Below are positions 7,511-17,656 of a stretch of 30,728 nt of DNA, piece after piece. A program made the position numbers and the translations under genes. Position 1 is the stretch's first letter, and each line of letters begins with the position of its first letter. The notes below the pieces were generated by a model. It was not told where the DNA came from. It did not search any database and worked only from the letters and a program-made list of their open reading frames with translations. The DNA comes from a virus (Duplodnaviria > Heunggongvirae > Uroviricota > Caudoviricetes > Peduoviridae). The stretch lies in the IMG/VR virus record IMGVR_UViG_638275546_000001; one strand, given 5' to 3'.

Positions 7511-7936
7511 ATGAAGAAATTATCCCTTTCACTGATGCTGAACGTGTCGCTGGCGCTGATGCCGGCACTGTCCCTGATTTACCCGCAGAGCGTGGCCGTC
7601 AGTTTTGTCGCCACCTGGGCGATTCTGGCGATGGTTATCTGTGTGGTTGCCGGTGGTGTCGGCGTGTATGCCACTGAGTATGTGCTGGAACGCTACGGGC
7701 GGGAGCTGCCGCCGGAATCGCTGGCCGTGAAGATTGTCACGTCGCTGTTTTTGCAGCCGGTGCCGTGGCGCAGACGGGCGGCGGCTCTGATGGTGATGGT
7801 GGCGACGTTTATCTCGCTGGTCGCTGCCGGGTGGATTTTTACCGCGCTGATTTATCTCGTGGCGTCGCTGTTCTTCCGGCTGATATGTACGGCCTGCCGT
7901 CAGCGTCTTGAGGAGCGGGAACCATGTCAAAGCTGA
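7511..7936 (+). CDS. lysA: Lysis timing membrane protein LysA
   Basis: 141-aa highly hydrophobic multi-TM protein after endolysin; P2 LysA-like. Confidence 0.85.
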   Translation: MKKLSLSLMLNVSLALMPALSLIYPQSVAVSFVATWAILAMVICVVAGGVGVYATEYVLERYGRELPPESLAVKIVTSLFLQPVPWRRRAAALMVMVATFISLVAAGWIFTALIYLVASLFFRLICTACRQRLEEREPCQS

Positions 7937-8349
7937 TGATTGTGCTGGTCGTGTTGTTATCGCTGGCGGTGTCCGGTCTGTTTCTGGTGAAACACAAAAA
8001 TGCCAGCCTGCGCGCCTCGCTGGACAGGGCGAATAACGTCGCCAGTGAACAGCAGACGACCATCACCATGCTGAAAAATCAGCTTCATGTTGCCCTCACC
8101 AGGGCAGACAAAAACGAGCTGGCGCAGGTGGCACTGCGTCAGGAACTGGAAAACGCCGCGAAGCGTGAAGCTCAGCGCGAGAAAACCATCACGAGATTAC
8201 TCAATGAAAACGAAGATTTTCGCCGCTGGTACGGTGCTGACCTGCCTGATGCTGTGCGCCGGTTGCACCAGCGCCCGGCCTGCGCAGACGCCAGTGATTG
8301 TCCACAACGCCTGCCCGAAAGTGAGTCTTTGCCCGATGCCGGGCAGTGA
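7924..8349 (+). CDS. lysB: Inner-membrane spanin (Rz-like) LysB
   Basis: 141-aa, N-terminal TM segment followed by coiled-coil/charged region; P2 LysB-like. Confidence 0.85.
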   Translation: MSKLMIVLVVLLSLAVSGLFLVKHKNASLRASLDRANNVASEQQTTITMLKNQLHVALTRADKNELAQVALRQELENAAKREAQREKTITRLLNENEDFRRWYGADLPDAVRRLHQRPACADASDCPQRLPESESLPDAGQ

Positions 8350-8494
8350 CCCGCAGAAGAACGGCGATTTAAGTGCCGATATCCGGCTGCTTGAGAACGC
8401 GCTGGCACGCTGTGCCAGCCAGGTAAAAATGATTAAACACTGTCAGGACGAAAACGATGCTCAAACCCGACAGCCTGCGCAGGGCGCTGACTGA
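8204..8494 (+). CDS. lysC: Outer-membrane lipoprotein spanin (Rz1-like) LysC, nested in the +1 frame of lysB
   Basis: Start at internal ATG of ORF 8087..8494 (MKTKIFAAGTVLTCLMLCAGC..., 96 aa); lipoprotein signal with lipobox LCAGC; begins inside lysB in another frame. Confidence 0.8.
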   Translation: MKTKIFAAGTVLTCLMLCAGCTSARPAQTPVIVHNACPKVSLCPMPGSDPQKNGDLSADIRLLENALARCASQVKMIKHCQDENDAQTRQPAQGAD

Positions 8495-8924
8495 TGCCGT
8501 CACGGTGCTGAAAACTAACCCCGATATGCTGCGGATATTCGTGGATAACGGGAGTATTGCCTCCACACTGGCGACGTCGCTGTCATTCGAAAAGCGTTAC
8601 ACGCTCAATGTGATTGTGACCGACTTTACCGGTGATTTTGACCTGCTCATTGTGCCGGTGCTGGCGTGGCTGCGGGAAAATCAGCCCGACATCATGACCA
8701 CCGACGCAGGCCAGAAAAAGGGCTTCACGTTTTATGCGGACATCAACAATGACAGCAGCTTTGATATCAGCATCAGCCTGATGCTGACCGAGCGAACGCT
8801 GGTCAGTGAGGTGGACGGCGCACTGCATGTGAAGAATATCCCGGAACCCCCGCCGCCGGAGCCGGTCACCCGCCCGATGGAGCTTTATATCAATGGCGAA
8901 CTGGTGAGCAAGTGGGATGAATGA
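8457..8924 (+). CDS. R: Tail completion protein R
   Basis: 155-aa ORF; P2 gpR-like by sequence and order. Confidence 0.88.
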   Translation: MLKPDSLRRALTDAVTVLKTNPDMLRIFVDNGSIASTLATSLSFEKRYTLNVIVTDFTGDFDLLIVPVLAWLRENQPDIMTTDAGQKKGFTFYADINNDSSFDISISLMLTERTLVSEVDGALHVKNIPEPPPPEPVTRPMELYINGELVSKWDE

Positions 8925-11861: not shown

Positions 11862-14603
11862 ATGAGCACGAAATTTAAAACCGTTATCACTACTGCCGGA
11901 GCCGCAAAGCTGGCAGCCGCCACTGTCCCCGGCGGGAAAAAAGTAAACCTGTCTGCAATGGCCGTGGGTGACGGTAATGGCAAATTGCCGGTGCCGGATG
12001 CCGGTCAGACGAAACTGGTGCATGAGGTCTGGCGTCACGCTCTGAATAAAGTCAGCGTGGATAACAAGAATAAAAACTATATCGTGGCTGAACTGGTTGT
12101 ACCGCCCGAAGTGGGCGGCTTCTGGATGCGTGAGCTTGGTCTGTATGACGATGCCGGAACACTGATTGCGGTATCCAACATGGCAGAAAGCTATAAGCCA
12201 GAACTGGCTGAAGGCTCCGGACGTGCGCAGACCTGCCGCATGGTTATTATTCTCAGCAACGTGGCGTCCGTTGAGCTGAGTATTGATGCCAGCACGGTGA
12301 TGGCGACGCAGGATTACGTCGATGACAAAATCGCAGAGCATGAGCAGTCCCGCCGCCATCCTGACGCCACGCTGACAGAAAAAGGTTTTACTCAGTTAAG
12401 CAGTGCAACAAACAGCACCAGTGAAAAGCTGGCGGCAACGCCAAAAGCGGTCAAGGCAGCAAATGACAACGCAAATTCACGTCTGGCGAAAAATCAGAAC
12501 GGTGCAGATATCCAGGATAAATCAGCTTTTCTGGACAATATTGGCGTTACCAGCCTGACGTTTATGAAACACAATGGAATGATTCCAACCACTGACAATC
12601 TTGACTCCTATGGCCCAGAAGAAAAATATCTTGGAACGTGGTCATGTCCGTCACAATCCACTGCAAAACCAGAGTCTGGTTACCCTGAAGATAAAGGCAA
12701 TGGGGTTCTGGAAGTATTCAATGCTGGTCGCTTTCACTGCACACAACGCTACACCACCCGAACCGGTAATATTTACATTCGGATGCTTGATGCAGAATGG
12801 AACCCAGCCAGTCCAACATGGAGTGCATGGAGAGTTATTACAAGCGGGACTCGACCATTAAGCACGTCAATTGACCTGAATTCTTTAGGTGGCGCGGAAC
12901 ACCTGGGAATATGGCGCAATAGCAGTACATCAATAGCCTCATTTGAACGTCATTTCCCGGAGGACGGGAGCTTTGGTCAGGGTATTCTGGAAGTCTTTGA
13001 AGGCGGTCTGTATGGGAGAATGCAACGTTACACCACCCGTAGTGGGACTATGTACATTCGCGGACTGACTGCCTCATGGGATGCAGAGAATCCACAATGG
13101 GAGGACTGGATTGCTGTTGGGTATCAGTCCACGGGATGGACTTATTCAGGGGATCTTGATGATCTTTTAAAGCCTGGTATTTATAGCGTCACGAAACAGG
13201 CCACAAATGCACCAGTCACCGACTCTAAAGATCTTGCTGTTGGCTCAATAGTTGAAGTGAAAAAACGTTGTGATATTGAATCGTATATCCAGACATATAC
13301 GACAGTTTCTGCAACGGATGCCTATAAAAACCGGACATTTCAACGAACTCGTGCCAGCGGTGAAGCTGACTGGGGGGAATGGGCGGAAGTTTACAACTCA
13401 AAATCATTACTCACTAAATTAGGTGTCGGCGGTGTTACCGACAGGTTATCCAGTCTGGACTGGCAGACCTACGACTTTGTGCCGGGCAGCATGATAACTG
13501 TCAGACTCTCCGATATGACCAATATCCCCGATGGGATGGAATGGGGCGTCATTGATACTAACCTGATAAATATCACTGTTGGCCCCAGTGAAGGTGGAGG
13601 TGTCGCCCGTTCAATGCAGGTATGGCGCAGCACCTCAAACAAAACCAACTATCGTTTTTTTACAGTCCGCTTATATGGCAATCCTGGGGAGCGTAGCTTC
13701 AATATTCGTCGGCTACCAATTATCGACGAAGCCCAGACATGGGAGGCAAAACAGACATTCAGTGCAGGCCTCTCTGGTGAACTGTCCGGCAATGCGGCGA
13801 CAGCAACAAAGCTGAAAACAGCCCGTAAAATTAATAACGTTTCGTTTGATGGAACATCAGATATTAACCTGACGCCGAAAAATATTGGTGCATTTGCTTC
13901 AGGAAAAACAGGAGACACCGTTGCGAATGATAAAGCCGTTGGATGGAACTGGAGTAGCGGAGCCTATAACGCAACTACTGGTGGGGCATCAACGTTAATT
14001 CTTCATTTTAATATCGGTGAAGGAAGTTGTCCCGCAGCCCAGTTCCGCGTTAATTATAAGAACGGCGGTATTTTTTATCGTTCTGCTCGTGATGGTTACG
14101 GATTCGAGGCTGACTGGTCTGAGTTTTATACCACAACGCGAAAACCTACAGCGGGAGATGTCGGTGCACTGTCGTTATCTGGTGGTCAATTGAATGGTGC
14201 ACTGGGCATCGGAACATCCAGTGATCTTGGCGGTAATTCGATTGTTTTGGGTGATAATGACACGGGCTTTAAACAAAATGGTGATGGTAATCTGGATGTT
14301 TATGCTAATAGCGTCCATGTTATGCGCTTTGTCTCCGGAAGCATTCAAAGTAATAAAACCATAAATATTACGGGGCGTGTTAATCCTTCGGATTACGGTA
14401 ACTTTGATTCCCGCTATGTGAGAGATGTCAGACTTGGCACTCGTGTTGTTCAGACCATGCAGAAAGGCGTGATGTATGAAAAATCAGGCCATGTAATCAC
14501 GGGGCTTGGTATTGTCGGTGAAGTCGATGGTGATGACCCCGCAGTATTCAGACCAATACAAAAATACATCAATGGCACATGGTATAACGTTGCGCAGGTG
14601 TAA
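11862..14603 (+). CDS. H: Tail fibre protein H (mosaic; conserved P2-like N-terminus, divergent distal receptor-binding region)
   Basis: 913-aa ORF; N-terminal ~200 aa recognised as P2 gpH-like baseplate-attachment region; the remainder is of lower GC, carries an internal duplicated ~70-aa module and a C-terminal ...GTWYNVAQV segment; followed by the assembly chaperone G. Confidence 0.88.
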   Translation: MSTKFKTVITTAGAAKLAAATVPGGKKVNLSAMAVGDGNGKLPVPDAGQTKLVHEVWRHALNKVSVDNKNKNYIVAELVVPPEVGGFWMRELGLYDDAGTLIAVSNMAESYKPELAEGSGRAQTCRMVIILSNVASVELSIDASTVMATQDYVDDKIAEHEQSRRHPDATLTEKGFTQLSSATNSTSEKLAATPKAVKAANDNANSRLAKNQNGADIQDKSAFLDNIGVTSLTFMKHNGMIPTTDNLDSYGPEEKYLGTWSCPSQSTAKPESGYPEDKGNGVLEVFNAGRFHCTQRYTTRTGNIYIRMLDAEWNPASPTWSAWRVITSGTRPLSTSIDLNSLGGAEHLGIWRNSSTSIASFERHFPEDGSFGQGILEVFEGGLYGRMQRYTTRSGTMYIRGLTASWDAENPQWEDWIAVGYQSTGWTYSGDLDDLLKPGIYSVTKQATNAPVTDSKDLAVGSIVEVKKRCDIESYIQTYTTVSATDAYKNRTFQRTRASGEADWGEWAEVYNSKSLLTKLGVGGVTDRLSSLDWQTYDFVPGSMITVRLSDMTNIPDGMEWGVIDTNLINITVGPSEGGGVARSMQVWRSTSNKTNYRFFTVRLYGNPGERSFNIRRLPIIDEAQTWEAKQTFSAGLSGELSGNAATATKLKTARKINNVSFDGTSDINLTPKNIGAFASGKTGDTVANDKAVGWNWSSGAYNATTGGASTLILHFNIGEGSCPAAQFRVNYKNGGIFYRSARDGYGFEADWSEFYTTTRKPTAGDVGALSLSGGQLNGALGIGTSSDLGGNSIVLGDNDTGFKQNGDGNLDVYANSVHVMRFVSGSIQSNKTINITGRVNPSDYGNFDSRYVRDVRLGTRVVQTMQKGVMYEKSGHVITGLGIVGEVDGDDPAVFRPIQKYINGTWYNVAQV

Positions 14604-14606
14604 ATT

Positions 14607-15134
14607 ATGCAGCATTTAAAAAACATTAAGTCAGGTAATCCAAAAACAAAAGAACAATATCAGCTAACAAAGAATTTTGATGTTATCTGGTTATGGTCCG
14701 AAGACGGAAAAAACTGGTATGAGGAAGTAAGTAATTTTCAGGAAGACACGATAAAGATTGTTTACGACGAGAATAATATAATTGTCGGCATCACCAGAGA
14801 TGCTTCAACGTTCAACCCTGAAGGTTTTAGCGTTGTCGAGGTTCCTGATATTACCGCCAACCGACGTGCTGATGACTCAGGTAAATGGATGTTTAAGGAT
14901 GGTGCCGTGATTAAGCGGATTTATACGGCAGACGAACAGCAACAACAGGCAGAATCACAAAAGGCCGCGTTACTTTCCGAAGCGGAAAGCGTTATTCAGC
15001 CACTGGAGCGCGCTGTCAGGCTGAACATGGCAACAGATGAGGAGCGTAGCCGACTGGAAGCATGGGAACGCTACAGTGTTCTGGTCAGCCGTGTGGATCC
15101 TGCAAATCCTGAATGGCCGGAAATGCCGCAATAA
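14607..15134 (+). CDS. G: Tail fibre assembly chaperone
   Basis: 175-aa ORF; P2 gpG-like. Confidence 0.9.
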
Positions 15135-15158
15135 GTTGTATGAGCTGACATATCTATA

Positions 15159-15207
15159 GCACAGAGTAAAGCCTAATCTGACAGTCCGCTCTGTGCAAGG
15201 AGCGGAC
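15159..15207. terminator. Nested stem-loops between convergent G and the minus-strand accessory ORF (candidate bidirectional terminator)
   Basis: GTCCGCTC-tgtgcaag-GAGCGGAC perfect 8-bp hairpin (15184..15207) overlapping a GCACAGAG...CTCTGTGC inverted repeat (15159..15197); no clear U-tract on either strand. Confidence 0.4.
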
Positions 15208-15285
15208 ATTACCTAACACATTGGTAACCTTCACAGATTTACGCGTTCTACATAGTTAGCATTGTATCTGATGAGTTATCATGTT

Positions 15286-16065
15286 TTAAAATATCCAACT
15301 GATAAATCCACCTGAATACTTTTCACTAATTTTGATTGCATAAAGATCATGAAGAGTTATAAATAAATCATTATCTTCTTTGAAAATTAACTCCTCATAC
15401 TCTGCCATTATCAAATTATGCTGTGTTGTTAGTTTAGATATGTTATCTATTTCACTGGCAAGCATGGATTTGTTTACATTGGTGTGTGGATCCATGGCAA
15501 TATATTTCCGCATCAATGGAATTAGTTGATCAGGGTCTATATTTTTTGCATTTTCCTTTGCTTTTTTTTGTCTTTCTGAATAGATGGAGTTAATTGTGTT
15601 AGTGTGTTTTTTCGCCAGTCTCTTAAACTCTGGATATGAACCAGTAACTAATGCAAGCTCTTCGTACTTAAGGAATAAATCGATATTGCATTTTTTTACC
15701 GTCATTTCAAGATCTTCAACTCTTTTTTTTAACTCTTCATTTGTTTTAATAAGAGACATCGGGAGAACTTCATAATGTTGTCCTAATTCTGAATCAGGGC
15801 TCATTGCCATATGTACTATTTCATTATACATGAGCTGATAAGAAGCAGATAACTCTCCATACTTTAGAAATAGTTCATTATGTGAAGATGAACAAGAACT
15901 TTGTAATTTCATCATTGGCCTAAAGTAATCCTTTATAAACTCCTCCTGAAGATCTTGGTCTTTTTTGTAGCTCTCTAGGATTCCAGCAAAAAGAAATGAC
16001 CCTAAAGATATAGAGATTATGGATATTAGCAATTGACTAAGGAATGATTGTGTTTCATTACTCAT
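15286..16065 (-). CDS. Accessory (moron) protein at the Z/fun position: single-pass membrane protein of unknown function, candidate phage-exclusion protein
   Basis: 259-aa ORF with ATG start and AGGA Shine-Dalgarno; opposite strand to the flanking late genes; markedly AT-rich; N-terminal hydrophobic helix (about residues 8-30), Lys/Glu-rich soluble remainder with no motif I recognise. Confidence 0.75.
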   Translation of the reverse strand: MSNETQSFLSQLLISIISISLGSFLFAGILESYKKDQDLQEEFIKDYFRPMMKLQSSCSSSHNELFLKYGELSASYQLMYNEIVHMAMSPDSELGQHYEVLPMSLIKTNEELKKRVEDLEMTVKKCNIDLFLKYEELALVTGSYPEFKRLAKKHTNTINSIYSERQKKAKENAKNIDPDQLIPLMRKYIAMDPHTNVNKSMLASEIDNISKLTTQHNLIMAEYEELIFKEDNDLFITLHDLYAIKISEKYSGGFISWIF

Positions 16066-16465
16066 AAAACATCCTTAAAAAATAACACGAAAAGTGACTC
16101 CTGACAGGGAAGAAACGACAGGTCGGAAACAAACTTAACTGATGAGTTAGCTGTAGTCCAGAACCTTGTTTTAACACTTAGTGTGACTGTTTGCATCTCA
16201 GGAATTTGTGCCAATAATATTTGAATCCTTATAATTTATTTAAATCAAATTTAGTTACTCGCTCAAAGCAGGCTGTCAGATTTGATAGCGTTTGGGCTAT
16301 GTAAACTGTCAGTCGGAAAATGAGTGTGTACAAATCAGGACAGGCGAGCTGATTGCCCGCCTTTTCTTTATCTGTTGTTTCATCCACTGACCAGCCAGGT
16401 CAAATAGCGTCTCATGCTCTGCACAACAGAAAATAGTTGCACCCATTAACCACGGAGTTAAACGG

Positions 16466-17656
16466 ATGAGTGACTATCATCATGGCGTGCAGGTGCTGGA
16501 GATTAACGACGGCACCCGCGTCATTTCCACCGTATCCACTGCCATTGTCGGCATGGTCTGCACGGCCAGCGATGCGGATGCGGAAACCTTCCCTCTCAAT
16601 AAACCGGTGCTGATTACCAATGTGCAGAGCGCAATTGCAAAGGCCGGTAAAAAAGGCACGCTGGCGGCGTCGTTACAGGCCATCGCTGACCAGTCAAAAC
16701 CGGTCACCGTTGTTGTGCGCGTGGAAGACGGCACCGGCGACGACGAGGAAACGAAACTCGCGCAGACTGTTTCCAATATTATCGGCACCACCGACGAAAA
16801 CGGTCAGTACACCGGACTGAAAGCCCTGATGGGGGCTGAGTCGGTTACCGGCGTTAAACCGCGCATTCTCGGCGTACCGGGACTGGACACCAAAGAGGTC
16901 GCCGTCGCACTGGCATCGGTATGCCAGGAACTGAATGCCTTCGGGTATATCAGCGCATGGGGTTGTAAAACCATTTCCGAGGTGAAAGCCTACCGCCAGA
17001 ATTTCAGCCAGCGTGAGCTGATGGTTATCTGGCCGGATTTCCTCGCATGGGATACGGTTACCAGTACCACCGCCACCGCGTATGCCACCGCTCGTGCGCT
17101 GGGTCTGCGCGCTAAAATCGACCAGGAGCAGGGCTGGCATAAAACGCTGTCCAACGTCGGGGTGAACGGTGTTACCGGCATCAGTGCATCCGTCTTCTGG
17201 GATTTGCAGAAGCCAGGCACTGATGCTGACCTGCTGAACGAGGCAGGCGTCACAACGCTGGTTCGCCGCGACGGTTTTCGTTTCTGGGGTAACCGTACCT
17301 GCTCTGATGACCCGCTGTTCCTCTTTGAAAGCTACACACGCACCGCGCAGGTACTGGCCGACACGATGGCTGAGGCGCACATGTGGGCTATTGATAAGCC
17401 CATCACCGCAACGCTGATTCGCGACATCATTGACGGCATCAATGCCAAATTCCGTGAACTGAAAAACAACGGTTATATCGTGGATGGCACATGCTGGTTC
17501 AGCGAAGAATCCAACGATGCGGAAACCCTCAAGGCCGGAAAACTGTATATCGACTACGACTATACCCCGGTGCCTCCTCTCGAAAACCTGACCCTGCGCC
17601 AGCGTATTACTTCCAGATACCTGGCAAGTCTGGTCACTTCGGTTAACAGCAATTAA
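16466..17656 (+). CDS. FI: Tail sheath protein
   Basis: 396-aa ORF; P2 gpFI-like. Confidence 0.92.
   Translation: MSDYHHGVQVLEINDGTRVISTVSTAIVGMVCTASDADAETFPLNKPVLITNVQSAIAKAGKKGTLAASLQAIADQSKPVTVVVRVEDGTGDDEETKLAQTVSNIIGTTDENGQYTGLKALMGAESVTGVKPRILGVPGLDTKEVAVALASVCQELNAFGYISAWGCKTISEVKAYRQNFSQRELMVIWPDFLAWDTVTSTTATAYATARALGLRAKIDQEQGWHKTLSNVGVNGVTGISASVFWDLQKPGTDADLLNEAGVTTLVRRDGFRFWGNRTCSDDPLFLFESYTRTAQVLADTMAEAHMWAIDKPITATLIRDIIDGINAKFRELKNNGYIVDGTCWFSEESNDAETLKAGKLYIDYDYTPVPPLENLTLRQRITSRYLASLVTSVNSN

Follow-up and report, generated by a model that had tools for sequence, protein, structure and literature searches.

A one-gene AT-rich cassette at the Z/fun position of a P2-like Escherichia coli prophage encodes a candidate envelope-level anti-phage protein

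We analysed a 30,728-nucleotide stretch of viral DNA (Peduoviridae, IMG/VR record IMGVR_UViG_638275546_000001; hereafter the window), which is a P2-like prophage of Escherichia coli adjoining fieF and pfkA. Between its genes G (tail fibre assembly, ending at 15134) and FI (tail sheath, starting at 16466) lies a foreign, AT-rich, one-gene cassette at the Z/fun position, and the 259-amino-acid (aa) protein encoded there (WP_001540329.1) belongs to a family that, judging from sequence comparison, is real, compact, rare and undescribed. The protein has one predicted transmembrane helix followed by a helical bundle. We put forward, as a tentative proposal that we hold at somewhat less than an even chance, that it may be an envelope-level anti-phage protein at the outer face of the inner membrane, interfering with genome entry. 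The points in its favour are the location in a defence hotspot, the self-contained foreign insert, the evidence on topology, the gradient of conservation and the neighbours of related genes.

A foreign cassette between G and FI

The segment from 15135 to 16465 is 100% identical to several complete E. coli chromosomes, including that of strain SF-088, where the Prokaryotic Genome Annotation Pipeline (PGAP) lists the same three genes as tail fibre assembly, 'hypothetical protein' WP_001540329.1 and tail sheath. The list of open reading frames (ORFs) contains a single long ORF between G and FI, on the minus strand (15286..16065). Both sources agree with the coordinates of the three genes in an earlier note on this DNA, which had been made from the letters alone. 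The drop in guanine-plus-cytosine content (GC) described there is also real: values per 300 nt are 0.31-0.37 across the segment versus 0.50-0.58 to its right, with 0.353 for the whole segment, 0.322 for the cargo, 0.318 for the ORF and 0.551 for the genes from FI to ogr.

Alignment showed that the backbone common with P2 (NC_001895) and with the Z-region of P2-EC67 (AJ512685) stops at ~15207 and resumes at ~16258, leaving a variable cargo of ~1050 bp (15208..16257) with one gene. No similarity to P2, Wphi or P2-EC67 was found for the cargo between these common flanks, and in a comparison of the segment with phage records only the backbone ends of the query were matched. An Rfam scan gave a single weak match, IS009 in gene G (E=0.5), and none in the cargo. 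Among 5426 complete E. coli genomes the flanks are present in 1020 and the cargo in 13, and the six copies in IMG/VR are all 99-100% identical P2-like prophages. The edges of the backbone carry an imperfect inverted repeat (15175-15199 versus 16258-16282, 80% complementary), counterparts of whose arms are annotated in AJ512685 as 'left inverted repeat' and 'right inverted repeat'. At the left edge there is a hairpin, GTCCGCTC-N8-GAGCGGAC (15184-15207), with a folding energy of -15 to -18 kcal/mol; its motif occurred 0 times in 100 shuffles of the window.

Like P2 Fun(Z), annotated in the P2 record as blocking T5 and conferring sensitivity to 5-fluorodeoxyuridine (FUdR) (NC_001895, NP_046777.1), the gene is AT-rich non-essential cargo between G and FI with its own expression signals, lies on the strand opposite the late genes and is flanked by the same inverted-repeat backbone. 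Unlike Fun(Z), which is 528 aa long, it encodes 259 aa with no sequence similarity to that protein. The best BLASTP match between the two comprised 7 identities in 14 positions (E=0.41); together with the difference in length this rules out a Fun(Z) homologue, a question that the earlier note had left undecided. Its placing of the cargo in the second defence-enriched hotspot of P2-like phages agrees with the published record for the Z/fun locus (PMC9519451; iLund4u preprint).

The gene has its own Shine-Dalgarno sequence, as had been reported from the letters, and this is conserved: 'TTTTAAGG' is invariant across eight homologous loci, in which the start codon is ATG or GTG. The ~400 bp of AT-rich upstream sequence described at the same time proved to be composite, in that 192 bp (16066-16257, GC 0.33) belong to the insert and the remaining 208 bp (16258-16465, GC 0.47) are P2 backbone with the FI late promoter. 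The gene's own promoter presumably lies within 16066-16257, where no minus-strand sigma-70 consensus was found and manual inspection gave weak candidates only. Identity in this 5′ region among the Enterobacterales copies is 75-84%, about the same as at third codon positions, and a conserved RNA or regulatory element is therefore unsupported. Comparison of the window gene with its relatives, which are full-length, gave ratios of nonsynonymous to synonymous substitution rates (dN/dS) of 0.06-0.31, indicating a real protein-coding gene under purifying selection.

A rare family found mostly on chromosomes

No match for the protein was found in Pfam or NCBIfam, and a sequence profile search of the PDB gave nothing significant (no match below E=0.025). 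The proposed comparison with known defence proteins was negative, with 0 families at E<=10 in PADLOC-DB 2.0.0, a 2023 library that later systems fall outside. A PHROG scan matched phrog_7729, which has no annotated function, over residues 79-259 (E=1.3e-126), with two other matches at E>0.3 and no sequence or profile similarity to known superinfection-exclusion families. The span of this profile indicates that phrog_7729 members were evidently called from the internal Met79. The profile lacks the first 78 residues (it covers 15286-15831 of the window only) and so hides the transmembrane helix and Cys58 from users of the family. A tblastn search of the protein against 50,697 phage records gave no match, and the paper library searched contained nothing under WP_001540329.1 or the PHROG number.

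Searches of larger collections did recover relatives. A word-indexed search of 5.8 billion proteins returned 45 clusters, nearly all of 257-262 aa, from Enterobacter, Pantoea, Pectobacterium, Superficieibacter, Leclercia, Teredinibacter, Vibrio and Marinomonas. When 1.84 billion cluster representatives (50% identity) were searched exhaustively with a profile, 91 proteins were recovered at E<=0.001, nearly all of 250-300 aa and matching end to end, and six loci were found among 100,044 species, each represented by a single genome. These three results underlie our view of the family as real, compact and rare. A second profile search with a wide alignment gained Pseudomonas members and no new fusion. 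One copy, in Pectobacterium sp. PL152 (L020 10001-10653), consists of two ORFs of 122 and 97 aa with a match much weaker than those of its neighbours (E=6e-49) and is probably a frameshifted pseudogene.

A probable periplasmic bundle with a conserved membrane module

Topology and cysteine counts were taken from 58 family representatives, with identities down to 15-20%. All 58 have one strongly hydrophobic N-terminal segment, which in the window protein is the hydrophobic helix already recognised in the earlier note (Kyte-Doolittle mean 2.36, residues 12-30). In an AlphaFold2 model based on a 25-sequence alignment (predicted local distance difference test (pLDDT) 77, predicted template-modelling score (pTM) 0.72) the rest of the protein is all-helical and forms a bundle of ~225 residues, with no apparent catalytic motif, again as described before. 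The model helices span residues 8-31 (low confidence), 37-88, 100-141, 144-172, 178-190 and 196-248, followed by a short C-terminal tail. Foldseek searches of PDB and BFVD gave nothing at E<=0.001; the matches were generic helical bundles (E>0.01, TM-score <=0.47).

Three features point to the side of the membrane on which the bundle lies. The first is a pair of cysteines, C58 and C126, at the two positions with the highest conservation in the family. Beyond the helix, 52 of the 58 representatives contain exactly two cysteines, always in these two columns, while neither is present in five and only the first in one (Fisher p for co-loss ~1e-6, uncorrected for phylogeny). In the model, 30 residues separate C58 from the end of helix 37-88, and 26 separate the start of helix 100-141 from C126; being at near-equal distance from the loop that joins these consecutive antiparallel helices, the two would sit at the same height of the hairpin. 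A conserved, height-matched pair of this kind is what would be expected of a structural disulfide, and such bonds form in the periplasm. The second feature is that the N-terminal extensions of 20-50 residues carried by some relatives are strongly basic, with up to 12 Lys/Arg (e.g. MRRIFSRSKALSRFKQKHLLQARSKQIEDRGKREP), a kind of tail that is not translocated, which suggests a cytoplasmic N-terminus.

The third is a fusion. The 512-aa relative P0119 begins with a Peptidase_C14 caspase domain (Pfam 2.4e-17, residues 2-219), followed by a hydrophobic helix and the family domain. Some 260 residues precede the helix and there is no signal peptide, so the caspase should be cytoplasmic and the bundle across the membrane from it. 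The caspase is closest to the NCBIfam model 'caspase, EACC1-associated type', scoring below that model's cut-off, and the caspase-helix-bundle architecture was absent from the libraries searched. On the basis of the cysteine pair, the basic extensions and the caspase fusion, the bundle is quite probably periplasmic and the N-terminus cytoplasmic. The cytoplasmic part of the window protein would then amount to only ~7 residues and the bundle would be stapled by a C58-C126 disulfide. The earlier description of a single-pass protein with a helical domain stands; the 'soluble domain', as then stated, is most likely periplasmic rather than cytoplasmic.

Conservation, expressed in bits (family mean 1.50), is distributed unevenly along the bundle. 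It is high in the transmembrane helix (G22, S23, F26, G28; 2.07 bits), in the juxtamembrane motif E31-x-Y33-K34-x-D36 that directly follows it (2.50 bits), in the lower half of helix 100-141 with the turn YEELALxTGxY (1.86-2.08 bits) and in the aromatic C-terminal tail G-F-x-x-W-x-F (2.00 bits). Membrane-proximal segments as a whole reach 1.6-2.5 bits, versus 1.05-1.3 bits for the far tips (89-99, 173-199) and the upper halves of the helices. Similarly, dN/dS is 0.17-0.23 in the proximal half and roughly double that, 0.27-0.45, in the distal half. Although raised there, the ratio never exceeds 1, and no positive selection was found at the tip. From this gradient we infer a layout of a conserved membrane module and a variable periplasmic tip, in which the conserved face (transmembrane helix, ExYKxD, YEELALxTGxY turn and the tail GFISWIF) would lie in or on the inner membrane, with the tip pointing away from it.

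Repeated association with defence genes

Members of the family are mostly chromosomal rather than carried by phages. Defence genes directly adjoin the gene in 5 of ~13 contexts (the P2 hotspot, hsdMSR with HNH, hsdRSM with PrrC, Mrr and PDC-S06), a raw count with no background rate. The Vibrio sagamiensis copy has hsdM-hsdS-hsdR immediately upstream and an HNH gene downstream; the caspase fusion P0119, on a metagenomic contig (L027, 323-9539), directly follows hsdR-hsdS-PrrC-hsdM (PrrC 6.5e-105); the Enterobacter ludwigii copy adjoins an Mrr-type nuclease; and the Phytobacter copy adjoins the PADLOC candidate PDC-S06 (E=0, 1086 bits). Further copies occur beside an integrase ~2.5 kb from an Hcp-VgrG-PAAR/Rhs cluster (Pectobacterium), in a CP4-type island with a YeeP-like GTPase, DUF932 and RadC (Citrobacter), in a cassette-like array with IS110 and a HEPN gene (Teredinibacter), next to VapBC (one metagenomic copy) and next to a phospholipase-D-family (PLD) protein, an ambiguous context (Superficieibacter). 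The association with defence genes is repeated and not universal.

The Z/fun locus has itself yielded such genes. Vassallo et al. (2022; PMC9519451) described three new systems at this locus alongside fun, and the iLund4u preprint describes it as a mixed-purpose hotspot. According to a 2026 preprint, most untested unknown loci of P4 hotspots protect once cloned, and for 15-32% of unknown P2 proteins an antiviral signal has been predicted (2026 preprint).

In Teredinibacter turnerae (L003 9990-16630), five copies of a ~300-nt repeat lie between small same-strand genes downstream of the IS110 transposase that adjoins the homologue. The arrangement looks like a cassette array, with the HEPN gene among the cassettes.

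Movement as a hairpin-bounded cassette

The block that the prophage has in common with the chromosomal copies of Enterobacter, Phytobacter and Superficieibacter runs from 15184 to 16269-16276 (1090-1097 nt, 86-88% identity by blastn), and its ends fall inside the hairpin and TGAGCGAG motifs. Because the shared block ends inside these border motifs, the gene appears to travel as a self-contained cassette with hairpins as its ends. Both ends of the cargo carry members of one hairpin motif family, GTCCGCTnTG(A/T)GC(G/A)AnnAGCGGAC (15184-15207 and 16258-16265). On the chromosomes of Enterobacter, Superficieibacter, Citrobacter and Phytobacter, further members of this family separate adjacent accessory genes, often as double-hairpin units of ~75 nt (sites in Table 1); the border motif GTCCGCTnTGAGCGAnnAGCGGAC itself is repeated in this way on the chromosomes with the shared block. 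The border hairpins may be cassette borders or recombination sites, or they may be repeats like repetitive extragenic palindromes (REPs) that favour homologous exchange.

A candidate block of genome entry and its alternatives

In the proposed mechanism, a lysogen would make the protein constitutively as an envelope-level anti-phage factor, which, at the outer face of the inner membrane, would meet heterologous phages as they infect. The infecting genome would be kept out of the cytoplasm and the cell would survive, with the variable tip setting the range of phages recognised. HK97 gp15, T4 Spackle and Imm, and P1 Sim are superinfection-exclusion proteins; of these, T4 Spackle is small, helical and periplasmic and contains a disulfide. 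SieA-type exclusion proteins are likewise small prophage or phage envelope proteins without enzymatic motifs, active at the inner membrane or periplasm against genome entry. P22 SieA provides a precedent for a block at this level; it differs from the window protein in being 162 aa long with three predicted transmembrane segments, compared with one segment and a 225-residue bundle here (PMC10883804). In contrast to exclusion proteins, the present family occurs mainly in chromosomal islands, includes one caspase fusion and has no profile similarity to them. A second precedent is HXS, a defence-island system whose effector stops DNA entry in the periplasm, showing that the mechanism exists outside phages (PMC13128918). 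HXS comprises four genes, with radical-SAM maturation and a peptidoglycan-binding effector with HxS repeats, whereas here there is one gene and no such repeats or domains.

Several observations weigh against this candidate function. PADLOC-DB offered no similar exclusion or defence family and PHROG only phrog_7729. Exclusion proteins described so far seldom occur outside phages and mostly act against relatives of the phage that encodes them, whereas this gene is mostly chromosomal and is found in IMG/VR in one E. coli P2 lineage only. A simple plug would not need a highly conserved transmembrane helix, and the caspase fusion suggests transmembrane signalling over passive blocking. The charge distribution does not help the topology either: in the window protein no Lys/Arg precedes the helix and 3 follow it within 15 residues, so that the positive-inside rule is ambiguous or contrary, and in 35 of the 58 representatives the C-terminal flank is richer in Lys/Arg than the N-terminal flank. 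The post-helix Lys/Arg belong to the conserved acidic-basic motif E-x-Y-K-x-D. Moreover, Marinomonas, P0099 and three syntenic Pseudomonas loci have no defence-gene neighbours. The three distant Pseudomonas members (L033, L034 and L035, gene 8001-8798; P. chlororaphis, P. frederiksbergensis and a food-metagenome contig) share one site, between pgaABCD-DUF945 and an AaeAB-like efflux operon, which looks typical of a resident envelope gene; that this site is fixed and non-mobile tempers the defence reading. One of the Pseudomonas members bears the name 'nicotinamide mononucleotide adenylyltransferase' at source, which looks like a mis-annotation.

The same Pseudomonas site, with its envelope genes, speaks for the alternative that the protein serves the envelope and is not aimed at phages, either in immunity, as an orphan protein protecting against a bacteriocin or type VI effector that acts in the periplasm, or as a periplasmic maintenance or stress factor acting as a lysogenic-conversion gene. 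Some bacteriocin immunity proteins, that for colicin M among them, likewise consist of an N-terminal anchor and a periplasmic domain with a disulfide bond. The Pectobacterium copy near the Hcp-VgrG-PAAR/Rhs cluster, the UniRef name 'Lysogenic conversion protein' on one homologue, the human origin of 12 of the 13 E. coli isolates with the cargo and the mixed-purpose nature of the hotspot (iLund4u preprint) are all consistent with such a role. Against it, none of the ~13 contexts has the gene directly beside a toxin gene, it is never in the immunity position downstream of Rhs, and adjacency to restriction systems, PrrC, Mrr and PDC-S06 is repeated. The range of marine, plant-associated and enteric hosts argues against a host-specific virulence role. 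We regard this alternative as rather doubtful.

An effector that is triggered to damage the membrane would make more of the conserved helix. Here the periplasmic bundle would sense an envelope event brought about by phage attack, upon which the helices would oligomerise and depolarise or permeabilise the inner membrane, killing the infected cell before any progeny form. This is close to the abortive-infection-type (Abi) effector that the earlier note had suggested, but with sensing from the periplasm. That note's membrane protein is upheld; a classical effector sensing infection within the cell is less likely than an envelope-level function, because a periplasmic domain leaves only ~7 residues in the cytoplasm. 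In favour of the effector, few parts of the family are as well conserved as the transmembrane helix, whose small residues (G22, S23, G28) form a motif typical of helix-helix packing, and the layout of conserved membrane module and variable tip would suit a trigger. P0119 joins the same helix and bundle to a cytoplasmic caspase-type domain, implying that the module can pass a signal across the membrane, and defence-island neighbourhoods (hsd systems, PrrC, Mrr) recur. The fold also resembles, weakly and below significance, that of elongated helical pore-forming toxins and of a designed membrane-lytic bundle. On the other side, those structural matches are generic (Foldseek scores as above), the window protein has no cytoplasmic part with which to sense replication or hit cytoplasmic targets, and with one transmembrane helix per chain a pore would need a large oligomer. 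Such an effector seems unlikely.

A further idea is that the family is a new kind of single-chain immune receptor watching the periplasm, in which the variable tip would detect a phage component or damage during injection and the membrane module would relay the signal inward. The output of the relay would be the fused cytoplasmic caspase in P0119, or self-association in the membrane in the stand-alone prophage form. We regard this reading as improbable. With periplasmic four-helix-bundle sensors (Tar/Tsr, NarQ, TorS, PilJ) the fold matches are generic and de novo designed bundles score higher, and the protein had no match to the Pfam sensor families (4HB_MCP, TarH and relatives). Unlike chemoreceptor and histidine kinase sensors, the window protein, with its single transmembrane helix, lacks a cytoplasmic output.

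Finally, the window protein would share the general build of i-spanins of the Rz/LysB type, which are anchored N-in/C-out and whose helical periplasmic domain has conserved cysteines, but a variant i-spanin or lysis accessory of the prophage is hardly credible and was rejected for practical purposes: there is no o-spanin partner (on the minus strand, no lipobox-containing ORF of 20 aa or more occurs within the gene or next to it), the gene is outside the lysis cassette, whose holin, endolysin, lysB and lysC lie ~7 kb upstream (lysB/lysC at 7924-8494), it is antisense to the late genes with foreign composition, and most members of the family occur in contexts other than phages.

Other features of the window

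The features of the locus are collected in Table 1. In the FI late promoter region, which was transferred from the P2 annotation and lies outside the cassette, the equivalent of the activator site falls at ~16373-16398 and that of the transcription start at ~16440-16442.

On the other side of the cassette, GC is likewise low (0.36-0.47) at 13800-14850, corresponding to the 3′ end of the tail fibre gene H and the 5′ part of G. This suggests that the receptor-binding and assembly module beside the hotspot has itself been exchanged; tail-fibre modules are also swapped at the P2 Z/fun locus (iLund4u preprint). By offset to the SF-088 record, the prophage ends just past ogr at ~23068, and the rest of the window is host DNA with fieF, pfkA, sbp, cdh, tpiA and other genes. 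Immediately to the left of where the window starts, the identical E. coli prophage has the second P2 hotspot, located between replication gene and portal (L001 1-2679), which contains a DNA cytosine methyltransferase, a 330-aa hypothetical protein and a protein with a ParB N-terminal domain; these may be a second set of cargo.

Table 1. Features of the Z/fun locus in the window, with further sites of the border hairpin motif in chromosomal loci
Feature	Coordinates	Strand	Basis
P2 backbone spacer after G, with left repeat arm and border hairpin	15135..15207	.	alignment with P2 and P2-EC67
Mobile block of 1.09 kb: gene, 5′ and 3′ regions, border motifs	15184..16276	-	blastn
Variable Z/fun hotspot cargo, GC 0.32	15208..16257	.	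alignment, GC
Gene for 259-aa protein, 30.1 kDa, isoelectric point 5.5, WP_001540329.1	15286..16065	-	ORF list, PGAP
Cys126 codon, second of conserved pair	15688..15690	-	Cys in 52/58 representatives
Cys58 codon, first of conserved pair	15892..15894	-	Cys in 53/58 representatives
Transmembrane helix, residues 8-31, motif G22-S23-x2-F26-x-G28	15973..16044	-	hydropathy, AlphaFold2
Cargo-specific 5′ region, GC 0.33	16066..16257	-	alignment, GC
Shine-Dalgarno sequence AAGGA, 6 nt before ATG	16072..16076	-	sequence
Right arm of Z-locus inverted repeat, P2 backbone resumes	16258..16282	.	repeat pair, AJ512685
Backbone hairpin and T-run, terminator-like, kept in P2 and P2-EC67	16343..16361	+	alignment, folding
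FI operon late promoter region, outside the moron	16373..16442	+	transferred from NC_001895 annotation via alignment
Further hairpin motif sites	L011 6124, 6604/6637, 7789, 8868		
Further hairpin motif sites	L015 9463, 10900		
Further hairpin motif sites	L016 866, 9463, 10900		
Further hairpin motif sites	L017 957, 2544/2577, 3615/3648		

Implications

Anti-phage genes have demonstrably come from the Z/fun locus, most of whose cargo lacks annotation, and the present family has no described relative. To the earlier description of the gene, the analysis adds a probable periplasmic location, a cysteine pair, a gradient of conservation, a caspase-fused relative and a hairpin-bounded cassette, and the gene is a good and well-defined candidate, one of many hotspot genes without annotation. 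The family has properties that lend themselves to testing, namely the probable periplasmic orientation, the putative structural disulfide, the conserved membrane module with its variable tip and the caspase-fused relative in a restriction-PrrC island. Were the protein to have no phage phenotype, it would be an ordinary uncharacterised moron.

The hairpin-bounded cassette bears on how cargo moves between prophage hotspots and chromosomal islands. If the receptor function were true, the family would be among the few bacterial defences that sense infection before genome entry. If the protein proves to be protective, the few envelope defences that act before genome entry would gain a new family, and the gene would offer a simple one-gene model of the passage of phage genomes through the inner membrane.

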